Shown: one piece after another, positions 16,861 to 29,000 of the stretch
How positions within the stretch are numbered: the stretch's first letter is position 1
How the letters are laid out: every line of letters begins with the position of its first letter
DNA from: an uncultured Gemmatimonadota bacterium
Lineage (GTDB): Bacteria; Blakebacterota; Blakebacteria; Blakebacterales; Blakebacteraceae
NCBI GenBank assembly: GCA_964637695.1
Contig: CAZWVF010000009.1
Coordinates: 1-55,971 of the forward strand
Length of the DNA: 55,971 nt
Reading direction: 5' to 3'
Notes under the pieces: generated by a model
The model's database searches: none
What the model was told of the DNA's origin: nothing
The model's input: the letters and a program-made list of their open reading frames with translations, nothing else
Translations under genes and position numbers: made by a program

Positions 16861-16894
16861 AGTGCATTGTTCTGCAATTACGGGGCTGTGCACT
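16861..16894. repeat. 34-bp REP-like palindrome, degenerate copy
   Basis: Reverse complement matches 11814..11847 at 26/34 positions; contains the stop codon of the PhzF-family gene. Confidence 0.6.
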
Positions 16895-17825
16895 TAGGTA
16901 TCGTGATTTTCCCTTCAAGGGATCTGGCAGCCATTCCGCCGACCCACACTTCAGAGACAGAGTGTCCAACCAGCTGCAGCTCAACCTCCACCTGACCCGG
17001 TCTACCCACTTCGGCCCCCTGTTCGATAAGGAACCGGCGTCTGTCACCCTCACCGGGCAGATCGTTTATGTATGCCAGATAGCCACCCAGCGAACCGGCC
17101 GCGGTCCCGGTAACCGGATCCTCGTCAATACCTACGGCAGGTGCAAATGTGCGAACATGAGCATACGTCCTTTCACAGCCGGTTTCCAGCGTCATGATCT
17201 GCACCGTTATCACTTTCAGGTCACGGCTCAGCCCGGCGAGTGCACGAAAATCGGGGCGGGCGGTTGTGACAGAGTTCAGATCGGGCATCGCAGCGTGGAG
17301 GCATCTGCAGCCGGTACTGACTATCAGGGGGGGTCCAACTTCTTCATCGGCCTTCTTCAGCTCATCAAGGTCCACACCGAGTGCAACTGCCAGAGTGTCC
17401 AGATCGAGCCGGAATGGTTCATATTGAGGTGGTTGCTGGCCCATCATCACCCTTTCCAGCTTTCCATCCTCGACCTTCAGACGTATCTGCAGCAATCCGG
17501 CTTTCGCATCCAGATGGACAACCATTTCGCCGTCCAGCACGGGTATCATTCCCTTCCACACGAGTGCATGGAAGGCGGCTATCGTGGCATGACCGCACAG
17601 CGGGACTTCCTCCGCAGGTGTAAAATATCTGACAGTGAATGGCCCCGGATACACTCCCCCGCAAAGAAACGCTGTCTCCGATGCATTTACCTCACGCGCG
17701 ATCGCCTGCATCTGCTCATCTGTAAGATCCCCGGCCTCGAGCAGGACACCGGCAGGATTGCCGCCGAATGGAACTTCGGTGAAAGCGTCTATGACCAGAA
17801 GGTCTCTCAGGTTTTTTTCTGTCAC
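16878..17825 (-). CDS. PhzF family phenazine biosynthesis-like epimerase/isomerase
   Basis: DAFTEVPFGGNPAGV, NASETAF, RYFTPAEEVPLCGHAT, VSTG, RTFAPAVGIDEDPVTGTAAG, EQGAEVGRPG. Confidence 0.92.
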   Translation of the reverse strand: MTEKNLRDLLVIDAFTEVPFGGNPAGVLLEAGDLTDEQMQAIAREVNASETAFLCGGVYPGPFTVRYFTPAEEVPLCGHATIAAFHALVWKGMIPVLDGEMVVHLDAKAGLLQIRLKVEDGKLERVMMGQQPPQYEPFRLDLDTLAVALGVDLDELKKADEEVGPPLIVSTGCRCLHAAMPDLNSVTTARPDFRALAGLSRDLKVITVQIMTLETGCERTYAHVRTFAPAVGIDEDPVTGTAAGSLGGYLAYINDLPGEGDRRRFLIEQGAEVGRPGQVEVELQLVGHSVSEVWVGGMAARSLEGKITIPKCTAP

Positions 17826-19182: not shown

Positions 19183-20343
19183 CTACTTTCCCATTCCTAC
19201 GTGCTGTGCCTTCTGAAAAACCTTCCCCTCGGTCCCTATGGATGGAGCTATGATGATCTCGGTCAACTGGAATTCCCGGATATTGCGGGCCCCGACGTTA
19301 CCCATGCTGGTCTGGATGGCTCCGACCAGATTCTGGCTTCCATCATCGAGTCTGGCAGGACCCAGAAGTATCTCCTGCAGGGTTCCGGTTGTACCGACGT
19401 GTATCCGGGTACCCCTGGGCAGATTCGCATGCGGAGTGGCCATCCCCCAGTGGTACCCGCCGCCAGGAGCCTCTTCGGCCTGTGCGAAGGCACTGCCGAC
19501 CATTACTGCATCGGCACCGCAGGCCAGGGCCTTGCATATATCCCCTCCGGCGCGCATCCCGCCGTCTGTAATAATGGGCACGTATTTACCGGTGTTCTTG
19601 TAGTGGAAATCGCGGGCGGTCGCGCAATCGATCGTGGCGGTTACCTGTGGCACCCCCAATCCGAGAACGCCTCGTGTTGTACAGGCGGCCCCAGGTCCTA
19701 TCCCGACAAGCAACCCGTCTATACCCGCCTGCATCAGTTCCAGACTGACGTTGTAACCGACCGTATTGCCGGCAATTACCGTAACCGGTATCTCGCTGCA
19801 GAACTTCTCGAAATTGAGTGTTTCGTATTCGTTCGATATATGCCTGACTGTGGAAACGGTTGACTGAACAACGAAGAAATCGGTCCCGGCATCAGCAGCC
19901 AGTTTCCCGAACCGCTCTGCTCTCTGCGGAATGGCTGAAACCGCCACAGGAACACCACCAGCCTTTATCTCCTCCACCCTCCTTGTCACCAGTTTCTCCT
20001 GAATCGGCGGAGTGTACAGGTTCTGTACCAGGCGGGTGGCTTCTTCATTGTTGGCGGCAGCTATTTCCGCCAGCACCTCACTTGGATCTTCATATCTAGT
20101 CTGAACCCCCTCCAGGTTCAGTACGGCCAGACCGCCGAGCTTTCCCATGGCAATGGCGAATTTGACATCGACCACACCGTCCATAGCACTGGCGATAATC
20201 GGTATCGGGAAACGATGACCCTCGAATTCCCAGGAGGAATCGGTTTCGTTCGGATTGATCGTTACTTCTCCAGGAACCAGTGCGACCTCGTCGAAGCCGT
20301 AACAGCGACGGGCCTTTCTCCCTACACCCAGATACATGCCCAT
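19183..20343 (-). CDS. guaB3: GuaB3-family IMP dehydrogenase-related protein
   Basis: [54 protein letters not shown]; no CBS domains; ATG 20343 chosen by SD spacing. Confidence 0.9.
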
Positions 20344-20488
20344 CCGGGTCATCCTCCTGATATGTGTTGGTACCTTAACAAATGCTGGTCAGCGAAATCT
20401 AGGAGTGTTATCTCTGCGGGCAACTCCATTCTCCAATATGTGGCCGGATGAACACAAGAATTGTGACGTTCAGGTGACACCGTGATCT

Positions 20489-20518
20489 TTCAAATAATCC
20501 CGATAATCGTATTATAAT
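20489..20518 (+). promoter_or_regulatory. Putative sigma70 promoter of the accessory operon
   Basis: TATAAT at 20513..20518 with TTCAAA 18 nt upstream, in an AT-rich intergenic stretch. Confidence 0.45.
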
Positions 20519-20650
20519 CGAAGAGGCATCCCCTAAGTATTTATCTTACAACAAGTTATGTGTTCCGGTTCATTGACATTCTCTCTGGCACATCTGTTGC
20601 GGTGCTTCTTGACAGCAAATAGAGCCCCCGAAGCAGTGGGAGAGCGTGCC

Positions 20651-21517
20651 ATGCTGGAATACTTGAAAATCGAATATATGTGCGCCAGGGAATTCGCCAG
20701 ACTTATCTGCCGCGATTCCAGATACCTGGGCCTGACAGTGTCCATGTATGGCAGGACCCTGAACAGTCCAACTCGGGCTCAGATGCTGCGGGCAGCCTAC
20801 TGTCTGGCCAGGTTGATCGACGATGTACTGGACGGAGATATTATTATTCCGGGTGATCCCGAGGTTTACGTCTTCTATCTGATGCATCAGGCTAAAGCCG
20901 GAATGATCGCAGGCCGGAACCTGCCATCCAGACTCGGACGTTTTGTATTCGAGAATATAAACCGCTTCGGACGCAACAGTGAAATACCGGCCGAATATCT
21001 GCACGTGCTGGTAGAGTCGATGTTAATCGATCGAAGAAGGGCCCGTAAGAAACTGCTCCTATCCGATCGTCAGCTGCACACTCATCTCGTCAAAACCCTT
21101 GAAGCCGCCCACAATGCCGCATTGTGCATTTCGAACGCCCGGGCCAGGGCACCTGACATTCCTCACTTGATCCGAGCTCAGGCCTCTCTCTATACCCTTC
21201 GCGATCTTAAAACAGATATCTCACGGGGACTGGTTAACATTCCTGAAGATGTGGTTACCTTGGCACGTGACCAAGGATGCAATAGTCTATCATACGATGC
21301 GCTATTCTCAACGTCAGCTGTCAAGAAATGGATCGCTGATGAATTTGCGTTCGGGAGAGGGCATTTAGAGGCTGCCGGTCACCAATTGGCAGCAATTAAA
21401 GATCGAAGAACATCTATGATCGTGAGACCTCTTCACAGGGGCCTCAAGCACCTGGCCCGCAGGCTCCCGCCGGTTCTGGGAGTCGATATTTCGGTCAATC
21501 TGATTCCGGTCGAGTGA
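20651..21517 (+). CDS. Squalene/phytoene synthase-family (class I isoprenoid synthase fold) protein, divergent
   Basis: AAYCLARLIDDVLD (DDxxD), ESMLID, TLRDLKTD...RGLVNIP; ATG 20651 has a GGGAGAG SD (ORF is open from 20558). Confidence 0.7.
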   Translation: MLEYLKIEYMCAREFARLICRDSRYLGLTVSMYGRTLNSPTRAQMLRAAYCLARLIDDVLDGDIIIPGDPEVYVFYLMHQAKAGMIAGRNLPSRLGRFVFENINRFGRNSEIPAEYLHVLVESMLIDRRRARKKLLLSDRQLHTHLVKTLEAAHNAALCISNARARAPDIPHLIRAQASLYTLRDLKTDISRGLVNIPEDVVTLARDQGCNSLSYDALFSTSAVKKWIADEFAFGRGHLEAAGHQLAAIKDRRTSMIVRPLHRGLKHLARRLPPVLGVDISVNLIPVE

Positions 21518-21534
21518 GGTGAGGGAGATAAAGC

Positions 21535-22386
21535 GTGATGCTGATGCAATTCGACAAATGGTACCTCGATTGTCAGACCGACCTGGAATTCGGTTACTAC
21601 TATGTATGCCGGCTTTCCATCGGAAGATTGAGGCTGATCAGCAGCGAAGTCCATCATTACGGCACAGAGAAGGTTGTGCACTGGAGCCGGTTGGGACGCG
21701 CATATGCTTCAGGGCTGAGGGAGATGAAGGGAGCCGGGGCAGAGATCAGGGCCCGATCGAACTGCACGAAGTTAAGGCTGGCAAATGGAGAGGGATCCCT
21801 CAACGGATCGTGGCGTTCAACGATTCATCCCCTGCCCAGATACCGGCGACCTCTCTATATGGATGATAACGGCTGGTGCGACTGGAAAGTGTGGTCTCCA
21901 TTCTCGGAGGTCTCCCTGTCGATATCGCCGGACACGACAATCCGGGGATCGGGTTATGTGGACCTGGTCCGGATCACTATCCCCTCCTGGCGGATCCCGT
22001 TCACTTCTCTCCATTGGGGGCGACTCTTCTCGAAGGAGAAATGGTTGATACTCCTTAACCTGCTGACCCCCGGCATGAATACGGCGTGCTCAATAGAGAG
22101 CAGCGGAACCTGCAGCAATGTGGAAATAGATGTAGATCGGAGGGATAATGGTGAGATAGATACATTCAGGTGGTCGATCGATGGTCGTCCACTGAACGCG
22201 GAGGTGGTCCGGGTGCTTCAGAGAGGCCCTGTACTGAACGGTGAACGATTCGGGCGGCTGATCCCGGCCCGTCTGCTCGCCAGACTTGGATCGGGAGGAT
22301 TTGAGGAAAAGTACTGGGTCAACGCTCGGCTGAACGGCTCCGATTACTCGGGTCCGATGGAAGAGGTACGATGGAATGAACAGTGA
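21535..22386 (+). CDS. CrtC/AttH-like (lipocalin-type hydratase/cyclase fold) protein
   Basis: N-terminal KWYLD, DWKVWSPFSEV, RGSGYVD and LHWGR resemble the WWYxD, W..aP..V, GxGYxD and WxWxR motifs of carotenoid 1,2-hydratases. Confidence 0.5.
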   Translation: MMLMQFDKWYLDCQTDLEFGYYYVCRLSIGRLRLISSEVHHYGTEKVVHWSRLGRAYASGLREMKGAGAEIRARSNCTKLRLANGEGSLNGSWRSTIHPLPRYRRPLYMDDNGWCDWKVWSPFSEVSLSISPDTTIRGSGYVDLVRITIPSWRIPFTSLHWGRLFSKEKWLILLNLLTPGMNTACSIESSGTCSNVEIDVDRRDNGEIDTFRWSIDGRPLNAEVVRVLQRGPVLNGERFGRLIPARLLARLGSGGFEEKYWVNARLNGSDYSGPMEEVRWNEQ

Positions 22387-22990
22387 AATCCTGTGCAGCT
22401 GCAAAAACCTTGCCAAGGCGTATGGAAGACATACGGTTCTGGAGGATTGTTCCCTGACCGTTGCCAGTGGTGAACTGGTGGGCCTTGTCGGCGAAAACGG
22501 TTCTGGAAAATCAACTTTGATAAGGTGCCTGCTGGGATTCACCAGACCCTCAGGTGGAATGGTGGAGGTCAGTGGAAAAGTCGGCTACTGCCCGCAGGAG
22601 GATTACCTCAATCCTGCCTACATGGTGGATGAGCACCTTTCGCTGGCCTGTGCCATCTATGGCAGACATGACCATATAGACATGACCTACGTGAACGCAC
22701 TCACCGATCGGCTCCGCCTGGATGAATACAGGGAATGTCCTGTGAAAGATCTGAGTGAAGGCACGCGTCAGAAATTGAAGTTCCTCACCTCGATCATACA
22801 TAAGCCCACTCTGCTCTTAATGGACGAACCTTATGGTGGATTCGACTGGAACATGTACCTGGTCTTCTGGGATCTGATCGGGGAGCTATGCGAGACGGGC
22901 GCCGGGGTGCTGCTGATTACCCATCTTATCTACGACCGTCATCACTTCAACAGGATCTACGAGCTTCAGGGGGGGCGACTCGATGCCTGA
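22376..22990 (+). CDS. ABC transporter ATP-binding protein
   Basis: Walker A GENGSGKST, Q-loop YCPQ, signature LSEGTRQK, Walker B LLLMDEP, H-loop ITH. Confidence 0.92.
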   Translation: MNSEILCSCKNLAKAYGRHTVLEDCSLTVASGELVGLVGENGSGKSTLIRCLLGFTRPSGGMVEVSGKVGYCPQEDYLNPAYMVDEHLSLACAIYGRHDHIDMTYVNALTDRLRLDEYRECPVKDLSEGTRQKLKFLTSIIHKPTLLLMDEPYGGFDWNMYLVFWDLIGELCETGAGVLLITHLIYDRHHFNRIYELQGGRLDA

Positions 22991-23771
22991 TGCGCGATCT
23001 GGCAATCCAGCAACGCGGCTCTTCCTGCTCTCCTTCCTGGAGCTGTGGCGGAATCGATTCGGGCTTCTTCTGCTGCTGATCATCCCGCCGATTTTCCTGG
23101 GGATAGTCGAGTGGACATCAGGTGAGATCCCATTACCGATCGAACTCTTTTTCAAGGGTGAAACCGAGCGGGTGCTGCTGTCACAGAGAGACATATCCCT
23201 GGTATTCATCGGAGCGGCTGTGAGCGGATTCCTGACGGCCTATTACGCGATCCTGCTATTTCAACGGAATTTCGAATACTTCAGGCACTGCATCGGGATG
23301 GGACTTACCCCGACCAGTTTTATCGCTGCGCGTTTCCTCTTCTTTCTCACCGTCGTTGCCGCCCTCGCTCTATTCATCACGATGGTTGTAGGTATCATGT
23401 CACCCCTGAAGAATCCCGGTGGAGTATTCCTGGGATTCCTTCTTGTCGGAGCGGTGTACGGCGCCTACGGAGGTATGGTCGGGCTGGTTTGCAGGGATTT
23501 CATGGTAGCGGTTCTCTGTGTCGTCCTGCTGGCCAATCTCGATGCAGGCTGGCTGCAGAATCCTGTTTTCTATACTACCGCACAGGAAACCGCCATTATC
23601 CACTGGTTGCCTGCCTTCTATCCCAGCCAGGTAGTATTTGCGGCCGCTTTTACGGAGCGGATGAATATGTGGGCGGTTACTCTCAGTGTCCTCTATGGAA
23701 CGATCCTCTTTCTATCAATGCTGGTAATCGCGCACATACGGATCCGTTCCCTACGCAGGTGGTGGAAGTAG
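22983..23771 (+). CDS. ABC-2-type exporter permease
   Basis: About six hydrophobic segments, coupled to the ATPase (8-nt overlap). Confidence 0.75.
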   Translation: MPDARSGNPATRLFLLSFLELWRNRFGLLLLLIIPPIFLGIVEWTSGEIPLPIELFFKGETERVLLSQRDISLVFIGAAVSGFLTAYYAILLFQRNFEYFRHCIGMGLTPTSFIAARFLFFLTVVAALALFITMVVGIMSPLKNPGGVFLGFLLVGAVYGAYGGMVGLVCRDFMVAVLCVVLLANLDAGWLQNPVFYTTAQETAIIHWLPAFYPSQVVFAAAFTERMNMWAVTLSVLYGTILFLSMLVIAHIRIRSLRRWWK

Positions 23772-23773
23772 TC

Positions 23774-25252
23774 GTGGGAAATGCGGCAGCGCATGATCGA
23801 ATCTCCTCCTTCTCCGGCGGAGCATACATTGCCCTTTTCGCACTGGGTGCTCCCCTCCTCTATCTTGTTTTTGGTAAAGCTGCGGACCGCGCAATCGGCA
23901 ACTTCTTCTCAGCGCCCCCGCTCGTGCTGCAGATGGCGGGGGGAATACTCACAATTGCGGGCCTGGCATTTATCATTATCTCGATAATCCTGCTTAACAC
24001 GATCGGTAGGGGATTGCCGATCTCCTCTTTACCACCCGTAGAGCTCGTTACCGCCGGTCCATACGGCATATCCAGGCATCCCATTTATCTGGGTACTATG
24101 CTGACTTTCGCAGGTATCTCCATGATGATCGGTTCATTCTGGTGCACGCTGCTTGCCGCACCCCTTCTCGGATTTTTCTACTTCACATATGCGGTAGGAA
24201 TCGAGGAACCGATCCTTATTTCACGATATGGACAGAGATACAGCGATTATCAGAATCGAACGGCGCTCAGCTTTGAGTTCCCCTTGAGGAAGCGTCTCTA
24301 TCGAATCATCTCCTTCCTGCTGGAAAAACTGTCTGGAGTAATAAACAGGCCTAAGATAGTGCGCCGAGGCAATTTCATCTTCTTCTGGGGATACGGGATA
24401 TGGGTGGCGACCGGTGCGATTTTAGGGCTGACTGTAATGGAAGTTGTCTTGATCTCATTGGGAAGGCCGGCCAGTGATGCGGCGTGGGTGGTAGCCGTAG
24501 TCATGGTAAGCGGCCTGGTAGGAGCCCGCCTGTTGTGGCGTACAGGATTTGCAGTACATCACGGAACCGGTTTTACCCGCTCTGCCTGGAAAGTCGGATT
24601 TGTATCGTGGGGAGTGATGACCGGCTATCTCGTTGGATTGCCTCTGCTCGCCTGGAAAATGAATGTCTCTCCATACCTCTTTTTCGATGTGGTTTTCCCC
24701 TCTGTAATGATAACCCATCCCTTCGGACGGATAGGCTGCGTATTCTACGGATGCTGTTACGGCAAGGAGACGACAAGCGGGGCCCGGATCCGATATGAGC
24801 ACCCCGACTTGAAGGCAGTCAGAGAAGGCAGGGTCAATCCCGAATCACTGAGACCTGCCCAGTTGATCTCGGCAGTGAACGGCGCCCTGATCGCCGCACT
24901 GGTTTTCGGAATCTGGTATTCGATCCCGCTGCCGATGGGTGTTCCGGCTGCCCTGGCGGCTGCCATGTATGGACTGATGCGGATTGGAGAGGAATGGCTT
25001 CGAACTCAGAACAGAGTGATGTGGGGACTCGTTTCTCCCGCCCAGCTTGTGGCCCTCCTGCTGGTCCTGGTGGGTGTGGGCCACCTCCTGTGGATACCAA
25101 TCGGTGGAGGACATATCGTTCACCCGGCTCTCAGTGAAGTTCTTGACGTCTCTGTCACCGCTCAGATACATCTGCTTCTCCTGATCGTTTGCGGTGTGAT
25201 TTCCCTCTTTGCGAGCAGCTACCATTACAGGGCGGTGGGACGATGGAAATGA
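23774..25252 (+). CDS. Fusion of PEMT/ICMT-family membrane methyltransferase and Lgt-like (prolipoprotein diacylglyceryl transferase family) domain
   Basis: N half: LVTAGPYGISRHPIYLG...IEEPILISRYGQRYSDY; C half: GRIGCVFYGCCYG, RPAQL, YGLMRIGEEWLR; GTG 23774 follows the permease stop by 2 nt. Confidence 0.75.
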   Translation: MGNAAAHDRISSFSGGAYIALFALGAPLLYLVFGKAADRAIGNFFSAPPLVLQMAGGILTIAGLAFIIISIILLNTIGRGLPISSLPPVELVTAGPYGISRHPIYLGTMLTFAGISMMIGSFWCTLLAAPLLGFFYFTYAVGIEEPILISRYGQRYSDYQNRTALSFEFPLRKRLYRIISFLLEKLSGVINRPKIVRRGNFIFFWGYGIWVATGAILGLTVMEVVLISLGRPASDAAWVVAVVMVSGLVGARLLWRTGFAVHHGTGFTRSAWKVGFVSWGVMTGYLVGLPLLAWKMNVSPYLFFDVVFPSVMITHPFGRIGCVFYGCCYGKETTSGARIRYEHPDLKAVREGRVNPESLRPAQLISAVNGALIAALVFGIWYSIPLPMGVPAALAAAMYGLMRIGEEWLRTQNRVMWGLVSPAQLVALLLVLVGVGHLLWIPIGGGHIVHPALSEVLDVSVTAQIHLLLLIVCGVISLFASSYHYRAVGRWK

Positions 25253-26613
25253 CGGATAACAGAAGAGAGATATTGCAGGTGGAAGCACCCGCCTACGCCA
25301 ACAGGTACCTGCACTGGTACGGCTGCAGCCTTCACGAAATCGCCCGACAGCACGGCACGCCATCACACGTCGGGTGCTCCGAAGCAGTAGAAGACTCGCT
25401 GGACCTGTTTCATTCCGCATTCGCAGCTGCGGATCTCACCGTAGAGGTCAGGTATTCTGTAAAGACAAATCCACTGCCTGCGTTTCTTACAACTCTTGCC
25501 GATCTGGGAGCTGGATTCGAAGTCTGTTCCGGCTACGAACTGGCGCTGGTCAAAGAGCTGGGAGTTGAAGGAAAGAGAATAGTAGCAACCGGTCTCCGCG
25601 AGGGTTTTCCATTCGCCCGAGAGGCTTGTGAAACAGGTGTTGATATGCTCACGGTTGCTACCGCGGGTCAGCTGAAGTCGATCATATCAGATATCAAGAA
25701 CCTGCCTGGAACCCTCCCTCTCGGTTTAACCATATGCCCCGAGCTCCTGAGAGGCAGGTGGGACCTGACACTCAACACGGGGGCAAAAGGGGCCGCTATC
25801 GGGTTCCGCCCCGGCTCACCCCTGCTGGATGAAGCGATTAGGACCATTGCCTCCCACAGGCAGCTGGAACTGGTCGGTCTTCACATGCACATCGGTTCAG
25901 GAATCCGTTCGGCCGCACCTTACCTCAAGGCCATAAAGATCCTTGAGAAGGTGATCATGGCGGCGGCCCGACTGGGCAAACCGGTAACCATGGTAGATAT
26001 AGGTGGGGGCTACGGCCTCCGCTCGACTCCGGTGCTGGGAGCATGGAAGATCGTCTCCTCTATCCTGGGCCCCGGAGGTTCGAATGCCTCCAATTCCTCA
26101 GCAGGATCCATTCTGAACGATGTTGCCGAAATGGTGTCACAATCGTTCGATCGGCTGCAGAGAGTGGGGATACGTCCCGAGAAACTCATCGCCGAACCTG
26201 GTCGCATCATCTCAGGTCCATGCCAGCTTCTGCTCCTTTCAGTCGTCGACATGATCGACAGGGGTCGCAACGAGCGTTTCCTGCTCTGTGACGGGGGTTC
26301 AATGGCGATCTCTCCTATGCTGATGGCCGAGGGACACCGTCTGATGAGCCTTGTGGAACCGGATAGAGAACTGTTGCGCTACCGGGTACTCGGCAATCTG
26401 CCAACCTCTCTCGACAGGGTCTCGGCATCTGCACTGCTTCCGGCCATGCGCGCCGGAGATCGTATCGCGGTGCTTGACACCGGAGCATACTTCATATCGA
26501 TGAACAATACATTTATCGGGCCGCGCCCTCCTGTAATCTGGATAGAGAACAAGAGTTCCAGAATCGCAAGAAGACGGGAAACCGAGGTAGAGGTTTTCAA
26601 CCGTGACGAATGA
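25249..26613 (+). CDS. PLP-dependent fold-type III enzyme (diaminopimelate/ornithine decarboxylase family), divergent
   Basis: YSVKTN (PLP lysine), EVCSGYEL, HMHIGSG, DIGGGYG, EPGRIISG, GAYFISM; ATG 25249 overlaps the upstream stop (ATGA). Confidence 0.85.
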   Translation: MTDNRREILQVEAPAYANRYLHWYGCSLHEIARQHGTPSHVGCSEAVEDSLDLFHSAFAAADLTVEVRYSVKTNPLPAFLTTLADLGAGFEVCSGYELALVKELGVEGKRIVATGLREGFPFAREACETGVDMLTVATAGQLKSIISDIKNLPGTLPLGLTICPELLRGRWDLTLNTGAKGAAIGFRPGSPLLDEAIRTIASHRQLELVGLHMHIGSGIRSAAPYLKAIKILEKVIMAAARLGKPVTMVDIGGGYGLRSTPVLGAWKIVSSILGPGGSNASNSSAGSILNDVAEMVSQSFDRLQRVGIRPEKLIAEPGRIISGPCQLLLLSVVDMIDRGRNERFLLCDGGSMAISPMLMAEGHRLMSLVEPDRELLRYRVLGNLPTSLDRVSASALLPAMRAGDRIAVLDTGAYFISMNNTFIGPRPPVIWIENKSSRIARRRETEVEVFNRDE

Positions 26614-28006
26614 AAGAGGCAGCTTCAGTAGAGAATCCGGCACGCGCCTGCTCGGTTCTCTTAAGGAAGGTTCATATGCATGGCGGGCTCTCGATCCCCT
26701 TCAGAGAGCCCGTACGATAAGGCAGCTGCGCCGGTTGATGGCCCGCCGGTCGGATGAACTGGCCCGCCGGATAGCTGAGATGACAGAGAGACCTCTCTAC
26801 GAAGCACTGACGCAGGAGGTTTTTCCAGCCCTCGAGATGGCTCACTACTGCGAACGGAGGTTTGCACGAGTTCTGCATCCCCGAACTTCTCTCTACCTGC
26901 GCCCCGGTTTCCTGCGAAACAGGCATACCGTGCATTGGGAACCGTACGGCACGATCGCCGTGATAACCCCCTTCAATTTCCCCTTCTCCCTGGCGATGAT
27001 GAGCGCAGTTTATCTGGCGACGGCGGGCAACACCATCGTCATAAAGCCATCGGAGGCAATGCCCGATATCTCCGACCTGATAAAGGAACTGCTCTCAGAG
27101 ACCGGGCTGGCGCCCTCGATCATCAACGTACTGGATGGCGGCCCTGAGGCGGCCACCTTTCTCGCACAATCGGATTTGATTTCGAAGGTGGTCTTCTTCG
27201 GTGGAAAGAGCGGGGGTAATGAACTGGCCCACATCTGTTCGCGGCGCGGAATTCCATTCGTACTGGAGCTGGGGGGGGGCAGTTCAGCGATAGTTCTGGC
27301 AGATGCTGACCTGAAGAGAACTGCTGCGGGGATAGCCTGGAGCGGATTTTACTCTGGAGGTCATTCGTGCGTAGGTACAGACCGTGTATTCGTGGAATCC
27401 ACTGCAGAAGCTCGATTTCTTCAGCTGCTGGTTAAGGAGTCACAGAGGGTCTGGAATGAGGACATTGACACTTCGATGCTCGAGGCTCCCATCTCGGGAC
27501 ATATCCTCAAAGCCATCGATAATGGAGCCCGCTACATAGCGACTCCGAAGGGAGCCGATGCCGGTCCAGGTGAGACTCCACCTGGGCTGCTTGCTGGAGT
27601 CACACCTCGATCCTCTCTGCTTAAAGAGGAGTTGTTCACTCCGCTGATAGCAATCTGTACCGTCACGAGTGGAGAGGAGGCCGTGCAGATCGCCAACGAC
27701 AGCTGTCAGATGCTGGGTGCCTCGATCTGGACAAGGAATAAACGACGTGCGCACAAACTGGCCCGCGATCTGCGTTCATCCATGATATGGATCAACGACA
27801 CCAGTTTCGGGCTGCCGAACCTGCCGTGGGGGGGATGGGGAGAGGCGGGATGGGGCTCCATATTCTCGCGATTCTCGCTGCACGAAGCCGCCCGGCTTAA
27901 GTGGATCAGTACCAGTCCTGCCAGAGGACGCCGCCCATGGTGGCATCCATATTCCGAGATGAAGATGCGCCTTGCGCGCCTGGCGACCCTCTACTACAGG
28001 AAGTGA
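26603..28006 (+). CDS. Aldehyde dehydrogenase family protein
   Basis: ITPFNFP, GNTIVIKPSE, LELGG, catalytic Cys in GGHSCVG, EELFTP, IWINDT, LPWGG, C-terminal PWWHPYS. Confidence 0.9.
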   Translation: MTNERGSFSRESGTRLLGSLKEGSYAWRALDPLQRARTIRQLRRLMARRSDELARRIAEMTERPLYEALTQEVFPALEMAHYCERRFARVLHPRTSLYLRPGFLRNRHTVHWEPYGTIAVITPFNFPFSLAMMSAVYLATAGNTIVIKPSEAMPDISDLIKELLSETGLAPSIINVLDGGPEAATFLAQSDLISKVVFFGGKSGGNELAHICSRRGIPFVLELGGGSSAIVLADADLKRTAAGIAWSGFYSGGHSCVGTDRVFVESTAEARFLQLLVKESQRVWNEDIDTSMLEAPISGHILKAIDNGARYIATPKGADAGPGETPPGLLAGVTPRSSLLKEELFTPLIAICTVTSGEEAVQIANDSCQMLGASIWTRNKRRAHKLARDLRSSMIWINDTSFGLPNLPWGGWGEAGWGSIFSRFSLHEAARLKWISTSPARGRRPWWHPYSEMKMRLARLATLYYRK

Positions 28007-28121
28007 TTAAAAGAACAAAGAGGAGAGGATCCTGAACTTTGACCGGTTGTACGCAGGTCAGGGTGATGAGGGTCAGCAGGGGCAGGAAGCCGGACCGTTG
28101 AAATCCAGCATCGAGCCGGCC

Positions 28122-29000
28122 TCAGATATCCGCCAGAATACCTCTGTAGATCACTCTGACGGGGCCTTCGAGCCAGATATCGTCGATTCCGCTGTCCCCG
28201 CTGCTGAAATAGACATTCAGAACACCACCCATGGCGCGGATCGAAACAGGTGATTCTGCACCCTCCCGGCTCAGGACCAGCGCGGCAGCAGCGGCACCGG
28301 TTCCACAACTGAGAGTTTCCGCCTCCACCCCTCTTTCGAAGGTCCTGATCGCGAAAGAACCGTCTTGATCGGCTTCCTTCGCAACGAAATTCACATTGGC
28401 TCCTTCACTGCCGAGCTGTTCATGCGAACGGAGCCAGAGGCCTATGCTCTCCAGCGGAACCGCTCCGGGATCATCTGTAAGACTCACGAAATGAGGAACT
28501 CCGACATTCAGAAGCGACCCCGTCACCACCCCTTCGCTCGTATCGAGGGACAGTTCCTTCTGACCCGATGAGGAACCGATCGTCACTAACGCCCTGCGCT
28601 CCCACCCGATGGCAACGTGTCTTCCATCCGCGGCTTCAAAAGTGACCGACCAGATCTGTTTCGCACCGATGCCTTCCGGAAGGTTCCATCCTTCCGGTTT
28701 GGGTGTATCTACGGTCAATTCTGAACCAAGACCGTTCTCCACTGCGGCAGCCCATGCAAGACAACGGGCTCCATTGCCGCACATTCGTCCCTCCCGGCCA
28801 TCTGCATTGAGAAACACCATCTGAAAATCGAATTCTTCTGAATTGCGAAGCAGCAGCACGCCATCGGCTCCCACACCGGTTCGGCGTGCGCACAGATCGG
28901 CCCATCTCTCCCGAGAGGTTCCGGTTACGACCCCTTTCCGGTCATCGATCACCAGGAAGTCATTTCCGGCGCCTGTCATCTTGAAGAATGGTATGCTCAC
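28122..29000 (-). CDS. dapF: Diaminopimelate epimerase
   Basis: KMTGAGNDF, GVGADG, NADG...MCGNGARC, VGVPHFV, GANVNF, TFERGVEAETLSCGTG. Confidence 0.93.
   Translation of the reverse strand: MSIPFFKMTGAGNDFLVIDDRKGVVTGTSRERWADLCARRTGVGADGVLLLRNSEEFDFQMVFLNADGREGRMCGNGARCLAWAAAVENGLGSELTVDTPKPEGWNLPEGIGAKQIWSVTFEAADGRHVAIGWERRALVTIGSSSGQKELSLDTSEGVVTGSLLNVGVPHFVSLTDDPGAVPLESIGLWLRSHEQLGSEGANVNFVAKEADQDGSFAIRTFERGVEAETLSCGTGAAAAALVLSREGAESPVSIRAMGGVLNVYFSSGDSGIDDIWLEGPVRVIYRGILADI

Follow-up and report, generated by a model that had tools for sequence, protein, structure and literature searches.

Enzymes of the ICMT/PEMT/MddA/LmtA family methylate lipid-linked or hydrophobic nucleophiles at the cytoplasmic face of membranes, with roles in CaaX processing, the conversion of PE to PC, methanethiol methylation, and the methylation of lipid A phosphate. 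To our knowledge, no member is fused to an Lgt-like domain. Phosphorus-free membrane lipids derived from amino acids include DGTS, made via BtaA/BtaB, and ornithine lipids, made via OlsBA/OlsF. Series in which a decarboxylase, a transaminase or oxidase, and a betaine-type aldehyde dehydrogenase act in turn convert putrescine to GABA, and S-methylmethionine to DMSP via DMSP-amine and DMSP-aldehyde. The operon described here lies in a 55,971-nt stretch of DNA (the window) from an uncultured Gemmatimonadota bacterium and belongs to a previously undescribed cluster that uncultured bacteria of many phyla share. Its core is a methyltransferase fused to an apparently inside-out relative of Lgt, and the product is therefore probably an amino-acid-derived lipid and not a carotenoid-like isoprenoid.

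All seven genes are co-oriented on the forward strand of the window (Table 1). The ORF list gave junctions of +17, -11, -8, +2, -4 (ATGA), and -11 nt, the same six values as in an earlier note, which had also placed the genes between guaB3 and dapF; an IMPDH-like gene and dapF were found as the flanks. All starts but the one at 20558 have a purine-rich, Shine-Dalgarno-like stretch before them. The true start of g1 is probably ATG 20651, which has GGGAG 8 nt on its 5' side; g1 orthologues are 283 to 291 residues long. The start of g6 may lie at 25243 instead of 25249. No terminator-like sites were found between the genes on the forward strand, save weak intragenic matches. The seven genes form one operon, and the translational coupling proposed before was upheld.

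Table 1. Features of the gene cluster and its flanks (positions in the window)
Feature	Position	Strand	Description
g1	20558..21517	+	SQS/PSY-fold (class I, head-to-head prenyl synthase-like) protein; accessory
g2	21535..22386	+	Cytoplasmic protein with an AttH/CrtC-type double beta-barrel fold; core partner of g5
g3	22376..22990	+	ABC ATPase, ABC-2/ABCA-like exporter type
g4	22983..23771	+	Presumed six-helix ABC-2-type permease, inferred partner of g3
g5	23774..25252	+	Bifunctional integral membrane protein: ICMT/PEMT-type SAM methyltransferase and Lgt-like domain
g6	25249..26613	+	Fold-type III PLP enzyme, LysA/ODC group, altered active site
g7	26603..28006	+	NAD(P)-dependent aldehyde dehydrogenase; often found with g6 but dispensable
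Promoter-like site TTCAAA-18-TATAAT	20489..20518	+	Upstream of cluster; 10/12 matches in a consensus scan only
IMPDH-like gene	19183-20352	-	Flank of cluster
dapF	28122-29000	-	Flank of cluster

Co-occurrence in other genomes had been set beforehand as a test of the cluster, and the gene sets were found together in MAGs of several phyla. Versions were recovered at 34 non-redundant related loci from at least eight phyla, all of them from MAGs or metagenomes (nearly all MAGs); the full g1-g7 set occurs in MAGs of Bacteroidota and Ignavibacteriaceae, and g2-g7 in Acidobacteriota, Aminicenantes, and others. This spread, together with a gene order repeated in distant phyla, shows that the cluster is not a chance arrangement. 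The conserved core consists of g5, g2, and one PLP enzyme. In 25 of 26 informative loci g2 adjoins g5, and each informative locus carries either g6 or a PALP enzyme, with both together in none. There are two subfamilies, one with the LysA-like g6 and a second, entirely without g6 and g7, that has an ACC-deaminase/D-Cys-desulfhydrase-like PLP enzyme instead; the best matches of this PALP partner were D-cysteate sulfo-lyase, CoM XcbE, ACC deaminase, and D-Cys desulfhydrase. Natural fusions join g2 to the cytoplasmic N terminus of g5 (g2+PEMT+LGT in P0142), g5 to g6 (L013 and P0034), and g6 to g7 (L025). Both g1 and g7 are accessory genes: in L088, a relative with ~90% identical DNA, g1 is internally deleted and g7 is cleanly absent, as g7 is from L017 also, and g7 is present in 17 of the 21 loci carrying g6. 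Other genes were seen nearby at some loci. A HemL-like aminotransferase abuts g7 in L009, L010, L012, and L016, a radical SAM gene repeatedly adjoins the cluster (L003, L012, and L087), and L004 has an Rce1-like gene at a distance of 7 kb.

The seven family assignments of the earlier note held, with the CrtC/AttH assignment of g2 holding at the level of fold only. The g5 protein contains an ICMT/PEMT-type domain (approximately residues 1-165), an amphipathic K/R-rich linker (residues 166-200), and an Lgt-like domain of eight helices (residues 200-492). It matched Pfam PEMT (48 bits) and LGT (91 bits), and profile searches returned E. coli Lgt (5azb; E 2.7e-16) and ICMT (5vg9/4a2n). Foldseek with its AF2 model (pLDDT 90) confirmed the fold, finding 5azb (E 2.6e-6; TM-score normalized to target, 0.66) as well as ICMT chains (probability 1.0). 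Curated family thresholds were not reached, either for the NCBIfam Lgt equivalogs (83.9 vs. 334; 33 vs. 118.9) or for methyltransferases (isopcys_mtase, 29.7 vs. 160; MddA, 25.4 vs. 270). The invariant motifs of g5 are RHPIY...EE, GRIGCxFYGCCYG, and Y399/R403/E407/R410. Equivalents of E. coli Lgt D129, R143, G154, Y235, R239, E243, and R246 are kept, and the invariant catalytic or phosphate-binding residues of the Lgt-like domain persist across proteins that are 27-60% identical; Lgt H103, N146, and E151 are not conserved, with W, C, and C in their places. Lgt proteins of canonical topology that look ordinary (Planctomycetes, Clostridia, and Omnitrophota) share the Cys-rich signature, which is therefore not specific.

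The Lgt-like domain has an additional eighth helix and is preceded by the non-membrane linker, and its loop charges differ from those of E. coli Lgt. Loops that are cytoplasmic in E. coli Lgt contain 4/4/3 K/R residues there vs. a mean of 0.7/0.7/0.5 in g5-type proteins (n = 18), and the periplasmic loops contain 1/4/2 vs. 3.4/6.9/3.5. Because the bias is reversed in every loop, the positive-inside rule predicts an inverted domain whose active site faces the cytoplasm. For this reason, an effect on lipoprotein N termini, which had been raised before, is unlikely.

The g6 protein matched Pfam Orn_Arg_deC_N (115 bits) and Orn_DAP_Arg_deC (28 bits), and scored 176 bits against TIGR01048 lysA (cut-off 298). 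It retains the PLP Lys and the HxHxGSG, GGG, EPGR, and GAY motifs. The LysA sequences MRPAMY and GPLCESGD are changed to S-P-[LM]-L and GNLPTSLD in the g6 family (19/19 aligned members); residues that bind diaminopimelate- or ornithine-type substrates are missing, with a hydrophobic replacement, as is the catalytic Cys. We do not regard g6 as a diaminopimelate, ornithine, or lysine decarboxylase. The g7 protein matched Pfam Aldedh (275 bits), with ELGG Glu222 and SCVG Cys256 at a family-typical spacing of 34 residues, and its best PDB matches were betaine aldehyde, aminoaldehyde, and trimethylaminobutyraldehyde dehydrogenases.

The ATPase g3 matched Pfam ABC_tran (87.9 bits). Its best NCBIfam matches (DrrA, NodI, and GldA) were all under cut-off, and its best PDB matches were the second nucleotide-binding domain of ABCA3/4/7/1, EttA, NosF, and LptB. 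Pfam, NCBIfam, and PDB searches with g4 returned no match; it is called a permease only because six hydrophobic helices can be read from its translation and because it always follows the ATPase gene in related loci. The g3 and g4 frames overlap by 8 nt. Export by this pair, as suggested in the earlier note, or flipping is still plausible but optional: roughly half of the loci lack the pair or carry it in decayed form.

We tentatively propose, with somewhat less than even confidence, that a lipid is transferred at the cytoplasmic face to a free, probably sulfur-containing amino acid, after which the head group undergoes tailoring and methylation and is flipped or exported. We infer that a widespread module has been elaborated in this operon, and that this module produces or remodels a membrane lipid with a polar part derived from a free amino acid. 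The inverted Lgt-like domain would take the lipid from a phosphate-ester donor in the cytoplasmic leaflet (phosphatidylglycerol by analogy, possibly a prenyl phosphate) and pass it to a nucleophile in the side chain of a free amino acid in the cytoplasm. By analogy with Lgt, ICMT, MddA, and the PALP subfamily only, the thiol of cysteine or homocysteine is the most likely acceptor. ICMT itself takes small S-farnesyl-cysteine analogues, and S-farnesylthioacetate occupies its lipid site (PMC545952). With neither the Cys that protonates C-alpha nor the residues that would accommodate a charged distal group, g6 would strip the alpha-carboxyl from the lipo-amino acid, giving an amine or, via decarboxylation-dependent transamination, an aldehyde. 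Loss of the proton-donating residue in DDC makes this PLP decarboxylase aldehyde-forming (PMC7497351). Where g7 is present, oxidation of the aldehyde by this enzyme would yield a carboxylate of the thio-acetate or thio-propionate type. A result equivalent to the DDC switch has reportedly been obtained for C360 of ODC. Methylation by the ICMT/PEMT domain would take place on a carboxylate, sulfur, or amine of the head group; alpha-decarboxylation and methyl-ester formation exclude each other on one and the same carboxyl. The remaining proteins would modify or hold the hydrophobic moiety (g2), flip or export the product (g3/g4), and optionally supply an isoprenoid substrate (g1), and in the second subfamily the D-Cys-desulfhydrase-like enzyme would act as a C-S/C-N lyase in place of g6/g7. 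Not all seven steps can be obligatory, since even close relatives can do without g7 and the ABC pair. The earlier statement that no characterized pathway matches the cluster stands: every NCBIfam equivalog cut-off was missed, and literature searches found no published description.

The earlier note had centered the pathway on an isoprenoid made by g1. In a generalized form, the Lgt-like domain would move a prenyl or presqualene-type chain from g1 or the prenyl-phosphate pool, and g2 would hydrate or rearrange it, like CrtC, kievitone hydratase, or the archaeal OH-GDGT synthase, before attachment, methylation, and export. The g1 protein is a borderline pass for Pfam SQS_PSY (27.9 bits; cut-off 26) and had no match in a PDB sequence search, and both Asp-rich motifs (YCxARxxDDxLDGD and LYTLRDLxxDxxxGxxNIP) are kept in 5/5 intact orthologues, consistent with an isoprenoid product. 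The most constant partner of g5 is g2, whose AF2 model (pLDDT 88) is all-beta and lacks a signal peptide. Foldseek matched it to AttH (2ich), kievitone hydratase (7a0t), 25-phosphosteroid lyase (9fzn), and CghA/Fsa2/Phm7 (E 1e-9 to 6e-11), CghA and Fsa2 being Diels-Alderases. The substrates of characterized enzymes with this fold are all isoprenoid-like or polyketide, which leans toward the isoprenoid alternative, as does the action of its hydratase and lyase relatives at tertiary, isoprenoid-type carbons; C115-x-W117 and Y141-x-D143 of g2 are putative counterparts of the catalytic H/W/Y/D residues of CrtC. The recurrent radical SAM neighbor fits as well, and Lgt-type cleavage of a C-O-P bond would suit prenyl phosphates too. 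However, g1 is intact in only 4 of the 34 related loci, plus the window; it is absent from 28, a remnant in two (including L001), and under deletion in the closest relatives. A desaturase, cyclase, or prenyl-diphosphate synthase is conserved in no related locus. By its modeled fold only is g2 CrtC/AttH-like: Pfam, NCBIfam, and PDB sequence searches returned no match and no likeness to the CrtC or AttH families (PF07143). In addition, the Lgt residues kept in g5 bind the phosphate of phosphatidylglycerol in E. coli. A pathway built around g1 was thus not borne out, and we regard the generalized form as unlikely.

CaaX-type lipidation of a protein or peptide, in which the Lgt-like domain would S-lipidate a Cys of a cytoplasmic or membrane protein and the ICMT-like domain would methylate the C-terminal lipid-cysteine, is improbable. 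Both g5 domains have protein-modifying homologues, both active sites are predicted to be cytoplasmic as in eukaryotic CaaX processing, and the Rce1-like gene of L004 would fit. An Lgt-like enzyme has also been postulated for C-terminal Cys lipidation of MYXO-CTERM proteins (PMC11980579), but those cysteines are periplasmic. No conserved target protein, protease, or small precursor ORF was found in the related loci, where two small ORFs proved to be remnants, one of g3/g4 and one of g7, and PLP enzymes, which require a free alpha-amino acid, are the constant partners, one of them being fused to g5. We likewise give little credence to a soluble product, for which g6, an aminotransferase, and g7 would turn an amino acid into an osmolyte of the polyamine, betaine, or DMSP kind (an omega-amino, betaine, or sulfonium acid), with the PEMT-like domain methylating, the ABC pair exporting, and the Lgt-like domain serving as no more than a membrane scaffold. 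Although decarboxylase, class III aminotransferase, and betaine-aldehyde-type dehydrogenase make up a known reaction series, which the HemL-like neighbor and the closest relatives of g7 recall, a scaffold does not account for the invariant Lgt-like residues, g6 is without the residues for basic or acidic distal groups and carries a hydrophobic replacement, soluble enzymes form one chain with the membrane protein in the g5-g6 and g2-g5 fusions, and the second subfamily does without g6 and g7. That g5 is the host's housekeeping Lgt with an extra domain and unrelated neighbors, as its strongest domain match (LGT) and shared Cys-rich signature might suggest, is very improbable given the equivalog scores, the three replaced Lgt residues, the reversed loop charges, the strict synteny with g2 and a PLP enzyme, and the fusions.

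Returning to the proposed amino-acid-derived lipid, the fold and key residues common to E. coli Lgt and g5 suggest, by analogy, Lgt-type chemistry in which a nucleophile displaces a phosphate ester from a lipid; g5 differs from Lgt in its fused methyltransferase, extra C-terminal helix, charge bias, and operon with PLP enzymes. Its other domain resembles the ICMT/PEMT/MddA/LmtA family, matching Tribolium and Methanosarcina ICMT with an invariant RHPxY...EE cofactor motif. The decarboxylase-transaminase-dehydrogenase series is mirrored in reaction order by g6 (a fold III decarboxylase), the occasional class III aminotransferase, and g7, but the substrate-binding and Cys/acidic residues of LysA/ODC enzymes are missing from g6, which in some genomes is fused to the membrane enzyme, and most loci have no aminotransferase. 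Carotenoid and squalene pathways (CrtB/CrtM/HpnCD and CrtC) share the fold and motifs of g1 and the CrtC/AttH/kievitone hydratase fold of g2, whereas the cluster has no desaturase or cyclase, its synthase-like gene is accessory, and g2 has no sequence similarity to PF07143/AttH. The AttH-like OH-GDGT synthase Hgs, which has the fold of g2, shows that this fold acts on membrane lipids too. Pfam and NCBIfam searches found no BtaA, BtaB, OlsB, or OlsF homologues in the cluster; the proposed logic is nevertheless that of DGTS and ornithine lipids, in which a head group derived from an amino acid receives diacylglycerol or an acyl chain and is subsequently methylated, with the joining here proposed to proceed by Lgt-type alkyl transfer and not by SAM aminocarboxypropyl transfer or N-acylation.

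Seven genes of the plus strand, here g1 to g7, follow one another at junctions of +17, -11, -8, +2, -4 (ATGA) and -11 nt, and the coordinates of their reading frames confirmed the tight spacing described in an earlier note on this DNA. Apart from ATG 20558, every start has a purine-rich ribosome-binding stretch upstream. The true start of g1 is most likely ATG 20651, because this codon has a GGGAG Shine-Dalgarno sequence and fits orthologue lengths of 283-291 aa, and g6 may start at 25243 instead of 25249. The flanking genes lie on the opposite strand, with IMPDH-like, metallo-beta-lactamase-fold and PhzF-like genes on one side and dapF, a Big_5 protein gene and genes for glycine-cleavage P subunits on the other. 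The GC skew switches sign over 20-28 kb, consistent with the inverted orientation of the cluster genes; base composition gave no sign of recent transfer, and neither a tRNA gene nor a match to any Rfam family was found in the whole 55,971-nt window. The PhzF-like gene (window 16878-17825, minus strand) sits between a Tricorn/PD40 protein gene and rpsT, likewise in the related locus L088, and is missing at that position in the syntenic locus L001. HMM searches of each protein confirmed by Pfam the motif-based assignments of g1, g3, g5, g6 and g7, but returned no family match for g2 or g4.

Coordinates and assignments of the cluster genes and the upstream promoter-like site in the window
Feature	Description	Position	Strand	Basis
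Promoter-like site	TTCAAA-18-TATAAT, upstream of g1	20489-20518		
g1	SQS/PSY-like	20558-21517	+	ORF; Pfam SQS_PSY
g2	AttH/CrtC-fold	21535-22386	+	ORF; no family match; AttH fold by AF2/Foldseek
g3	ABC ATPase	22376-22990	+	ORF; Pfam ABC_tran
g4	Presumed permease	22983-23771	+	ORF; no family match
g5	ICMT/PEMT-type methyltransferase and Lgt-like domain	23774-25252	+	ORF; Pfam PEMT + LGT
g6	LysA/ODC-like PLP enzyme	25249-26613	+	ORF; Pfam Orn_Arg_deC_N + Orn_DAP_Arg_deC
g7	Aldehyde dehydrogenase	26603-28006	+	ORF; Pfam Aldedh

A homology search with g5 recovered 53 protein clusters of the same PEMT+LGT architecture, and an exact-sequence look-up of g5 gave no match. In a genome scan of one genome per GTDB species, g5-type loci were found in MAGs labeled Gemmatimonadota, Zixibacteria, Balneolales, Rhodothermales, Bacteroidota, Ignavibacteria/Melioribacteraceae, Acidobacteriota, Aminicenantes, "Eubacteriales", Actinomycetota, Myxococcota/Polyangia and others. 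No cultured organism appeared among the carriers. Locus composition was determined by searching 34 non-redundant loci (numbered with the prefix L) with every cluster protein in tblastn, and co-occurrence of the genes outside the window was evident. Colinear g1-g7 are present in L014 (Bacteroidota) and L015 (Ignavibacteriaceae), g1-g6 in L007 and L017, g2-g7 in L003, L008, L012 and L013 and partly in L009-L011, and g2 with g5-g7, the ABC pair missing, in L019, L021, L022, L025 and L087. A second subfamily of 11 loci, mostly Myxococcota/Polyangia and Gemmatimonadota, lacks g6 and g7 and encodes a PLP enzyme resembling ACC deaminase and D-Cys desulfhydrase (the PALP enzyme), g5 and g2 in that order, with the ABC pair and a PAP2 phosphatase in some. 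The PALP enzymes scored highest against D-cysteate sulfo-lyase, CoM XcbE, ACC deaminase and D-cysteine desulfhydrase, all far under the cut-offs. g2 lies near g5 in 25 of the 26 loci whose contig ends permit judgement, and every informative locus contains either g6 or the PALP enzyme, with none containing both. PAP2 and a radical SAM protein (L003, L012 and L087) are recurrent extras. Another is a HemL/GntE-like class III aminotransferase, which abuts g7 in convergent orientation in Aminicenantes and "Eubacteriales" MAGs (L009:5549-6760, L012:14237-15433, L016:3860-5071 and L010) and could be the source of an amine-to-aldehyde step. On the opposite strand 3' of the cluster in L087 (14732-17977) are genes for a beta-elimination lyase of the tryptophanase family, a PfkB kinase and a PNP_UDP_1 nucleoside phosphorylase; this trio may salvage SAM by-products or be unrelated.

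Several of the proteins are also found as natural fusions. P0142, a 787-aa protein, joins g2-like, PEMT and LGT regions in a single chain and is followed in its locus by genes for g6, g7 and a radical SAM protein. g5 and g6 form a single 962-aa ORF in L013, P0034 combines LGT with the decarboxylase, and g6 and g7 form a single 991-aa ORF in L025. The fusions g2-g5, g5-g6 and g6-g7 therefore place these four proteins in one pathway, and they probably form a membrane-associated assembly. Two small ORFs were considered as RiPP precursor peptides and rejected: the 98-aa ORF of L087 is decayed g3/g4, with the N terminus of the ABC ATPase joined to a permease fragment (L087:10358-10654), and the 53-aa ORF of L003 is the detached N terminus of a split aldehyde dehydrogenase (L003:12902-13063).

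The score of g1 against SQS_PSY (PF00494) is borderline (27.9 bits; gathering cut-off, 26), its Asp-rich Mg-binding motifs DDxLD and RDLxxD are kept in five orthologues, and no match was found among PDB sequences. L088 and its companion L089 share ~90% DNA identity with the window and are colinear save for two clean gaps, corresponding to window positions 20671-21448 (the body of g1) and 26629-28121 (the entire g7); the g5 protein of this variant occurs on at least 24 contigs. The more distant L001 (labeled Gemmatimonadota; g5 62% identical) retains a g1 remnant and g5-g7 only. The seven-gene state is thus one of several, g1 and g7 are accessory, and loss of the isoprenoid synthase is repeated and ongoing across relatives. 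As the earlier note had remarked of the desaturase, no CrtI/CrtN, and no HpnE or cyclase, was detected in the seven genes, in eight scanned flanking ORFs or among neighbor families common to at least two related loci, so the pairing of synthase with desaturase, reductase or cyclase expected of a carotenoid or squalene cluster was not found there.

No Pfam match was obtained for g2 and nine homologues at E values up to 10, and none for g2 in NCBIfam or among PDB sequences. The AlphaFold2 model of g2 (pLDDT 88) nevertheless retrieved AttH NE1406, kievitone hydratase, 25-phosphosteroid lyase and the Diels-Alderases CghA, Fsa2 and Phm7 in Foldseek (E 1e-9 to 6e-11), and the matches to 2ich, 7a0t, 9fzn and 6kaw (E 1e-8 to 6e-11; query-normalised TM-scores of ~0.6) assign it the double beta-barrel AttH fold. 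Because the fold match comes without a sequence match, the description of g2 as CrtC/AttH-like is valid at the level of the fold but does not extend to membership in PF07143 and related families. Few proteins belong to the g2 family: of 1.84 billion representatives searched, 754 matched at E<=1e-3 and 23 at E<=1e-30. The invariant C115-D-W117 and Y141-V-D143 of g2 are spaced similarly to the catalytic residues H239, W241, Y266 and D268 of RgCrtC (PMC4717167), to which they may correspond. These fold relatives and the intact motifs of g1 speak for a pathway centered on an isoprenoid, as first proposed, but this reading is weakened by the dispensability of g1, which is absent from most loci and deleted in a ~90% identical relative; an isoprenoid-centered pathway is unlikely, if still a contender.

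g3 is a clear ABC ATPase. Its neighbor g4 had no match in Pfam, NCBIfam or PDB sequences, and hydrophobicity and conserved adjacency suggest that it is the six-helix ABC-2 permease partner.

g6 retains the PLP Lys and the HxHxGSG, GGG, EPGR and GAY motifs of a fold-type III enzyme (PF02784/PF00278), and its score of 176 bits against LysA TIGR01048 (cut-off, 298) places it outside LysA. In 19 of 19 family members, the LysA sequence "DAGFNDLMRPAMY" is replaced by "CDGGAMS(I/L)-SP(L/M)L", which includes the change of "MRPAMY" to "SP[LM]L", and "GPLCESGD" is replaced by "GNLP(T/S/A)SLD". In LysA and ODC structures, the Arg and Tyr lost here bind the distal carboxylate of diaminopimelate, the lost acidic residue binds the distal amine and the lost Cys (ODC C360) protonates C-alpha. 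Since these substrate and catalytic residues are gone, g6 is, by its sequence, not a diaminopimelate, ornithine or lysine decarboxylase, and the side chain of its substrate is probably neutral or hydrophobic. A second LysA tied to the neighboring dapF was also considered and rejected, the residues being missing and the dapF adjacency limited to close relatives. Mutants of ODC C360 are said to be aldehyde-forming (Jackson et al. 2000). ODC needs its Cys for activity (PMC3289617), and DOPA decarboxylase without its proton-donating residue likewise becomes an aldehyde-forming enzyme (PMC7497351). g6 may release an aldehyde, which would explain why it is often paired, and sometimes fused, with g7. 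g7 belongs to the aldehyde dehydrogenase family (PF00171, 274.7 bits), with a catalytic pair, E222 (ELGG) and C256, 34 residues apart; since L088 and L017 lack g7, the pathway must also be able to end in an amine. The nearest relatives of g7 are betaine, aminoaldehyde and trimethylaminobutyraldehyde dehydrogenases; a pathway to a soluble betaine- or DMSP-like metabolite was weighed alongside these matches and is improbable.

By sequence and fold, the C-terminal half of g5 is a member of the Lgt superfamily: it scored 91.2 bits against LGT (PF01790; cut-off, 24.9) and matched the E. coli Lgt structure 5azb by profile (E 2.7e-16) and in Foldseek (E 2.6e-6). The remainder scored 48 bits against PEMT (PF04191; cut-off, 25) and 22.8 bits against ICMT (PF04140), just under the cut-off of 24, and the AF2 model of g5 (pLDDT 90), which matches 5azb, also matched the ICMT-type structures 5v7p and 4a2n with probability 1.0. 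Lipidation of proteins in the manner of CaaX processing is a further reading of this combination, and we doubt it strongly. g5 remained below the Lgt equivalog cut-offs (NF000778, 83.9 versus 334 bits; TIGR00544, 33 versus 118.9 bits), and that it is an ordinary Lgt is hardly credible.

To assess residue conservation, 18 family members that share 27-61% identity with g5 of the window were aligned. In the methyltransferase half, R101, H102, P103, Y105 and E144 are invariant (RHPIY motif) and E145 is present in at least 90%; in the Lgt-like half, D305, R319, G321-C-x-x-Y-G-C-C-x-G330, K347, R350, Q363, Y399, R403, R410 and H484 are invariant. Mao et al. 2016 reportedly found R143, R239, Y235, E243, G154, N146, H103 and Y26 of E. 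coli Lgt to be essential or conserved. Invariant g5 residues correspond to E. coli D129, R143, G154, Y235, R239, E243 and R246, and the equivalent of Y26 is invariant or present; at N146, E151 and H103, g5 has C, C and W. The three invariant Cys of GRIGCxFYGCCYG were considered as a thiol-activating Zn site and dropped as specific evidence, because Lgt proteins of canonical topology from Kuenenia/Planctomycetes, Clostridia and Omnitrophota share the motif. In many such proteins, ordinary Lgt by all appearances (L040-L084, e.g., L059 Kuenenia, L073 Clostridium and L067 Omnitrophota), the Lgt signature GRxGNFxNxE has become GRIGCF(L/F)YGCCYG, a motif carried by at least 482 relatives in the genome scan. 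Other g5-type Lgt-like proteins lack the methyltransferase domain (L035:9482-10954, L038:9953-11020 and L036); their genes are bordered by molybdopterin-oxidoreductase and 4Fe-4S dicluster genes and occupy the place expected for the membrane-anchor subunit of such a complex.

Canonical Lgt has seven helices, with the N terminus out, the C terminus in and a periplasmic signature motif facing the lipobox cysteines of exported proteins. In g5, the region joining the two domains (aa 141-200) is rich in K/R and lacks hydrophobic character, and eight helices, versus the canonical seven, are predicted after this cytoplasmic linker. Every homologous loop showed a reversed K/R count in all 18 g5-type proteins compared with four canonical Lgt proteins (E. 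coli, Kuenenia, Clostridium and Omnitrophota). The three loops that are cytoplasmic in E. coli contain 4/4/3 K/R in E. coli Lgt and a mean of 0.7/0.7/0.5 in the g5-type proteins, and the three periplasmic loops contain 1/4/2 and a mean of 3.4/6.9/3.5, respectively. Given the established positive-inside rule, we infer that the signature motif and the R403 loop of g5 face the cytoplasm, on the same side as the ICMT-type active site. The partners are in keeping with a cytoplasmic site: g2 lacks a signal peptide and occurs fused to the N terminus of g5, and the PLP and NAD enzymes are soluble. With the site on this side, the presence of an ABC exporter or flippase would make sense.

The reading we favor is a lipo-amino-acid pathway with Lgt-like transfer at the cytoplasmic leaflet; it is plausible, and we hold it tentatively. 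Co-occurrence, fusions and conserved residues are established by the comparisons, whereas topology, donor, acceptor and the sequence of steps are proposals. The Lgt-like domain would move the lipid part of a phosphate-ester lipid, phosphatidylglycerol by analogy with Lgt or alternatively a prenyl phosphate, to a nucleophilic group in the side chain of a free amino acid. The favored nucleophile would be the thiol of Cys or Hcy because Lgt chemistry uses a thiol, S-lipidated cysteine or thiols are the substrates of the ICMT and MddA relatives, the alternative PLP partner belongs to the D-Cys desulfhydrase/cysteate lyase group and the g6 pocket has turned hydrophobic. ICMT itself accepts S-farnesyl-cysteine analogues of small size, and its site is bound by S-farnesylthioacetate (PMC545952). 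The alpha-amino-acid end would next be converted by g6, alone or together with g7, either into an amine or into a carboxylate shorter by one carbon, the methyltransferase domain would methylate O, S or N, g2 would modify or chaperone the hydrophobic part and g3/g4 would flip or export the product. In the second subfamily, the lyase would instead split the amino-acid part, and the lipid thiol that may result would be S-methylated. A bolder version holds that a flipped Lgt-type enzyme lipidates a free cytoplasmic sulfur amino acid, not exported proteins, and so yields a new class of thioether-linked, phosphorus-free glycerolipids or prenyl lipids. Examples would be S-diacylglyceryl-(homo)cysteine derivatives processed to thio-propionate or thio-acetate methyl esters or to sulfonium betaines (lipid DMSP analogues), and the producers would be uncultured FCB-group, Acidobacteriota and Myxococcota of sediments and soils. 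This version is speculative and unlikely.

Environmental lipidomics has left many polar lipids of sediments and soils without a known source or pathway. If the favored lipo-amino-acid pathway is correct, g5 would provide the first non-lipoprotein function in the Lgt superfamily and a rare re-use of a membrane enzyme in the opposite orientation, and genes would be assigned to a new lipid or lipid-linked metabolite of abundant uncultured sediment and soil lineages. g6, LysA-like without the catalytic Cys, would offer a natural test of how reaction specificity is controlled in fold-type III decarboxylases. g5 and g2 form a compact marker pair for detecting the system, and the whole core (~5 kb) is within reach of synthesis and expression.

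The earlier interpretation, an operon for a colorless prenyl-derived lipid, is therefore partly supported, and its claim that the combination matches no described pathway stands: no curated equivalog was reached, and a literature search found no paper on this gene combination or cluster. The sole "Lgt-like" mention found in the literature concerns an enzyme postulated to lipidate MYXO-CTERM proteins (PMC11980579). The parts come from known superfamilies, and we rate the operon as a lipid or lipo-amino-acid biosynthesis with a new enzyme architecture.
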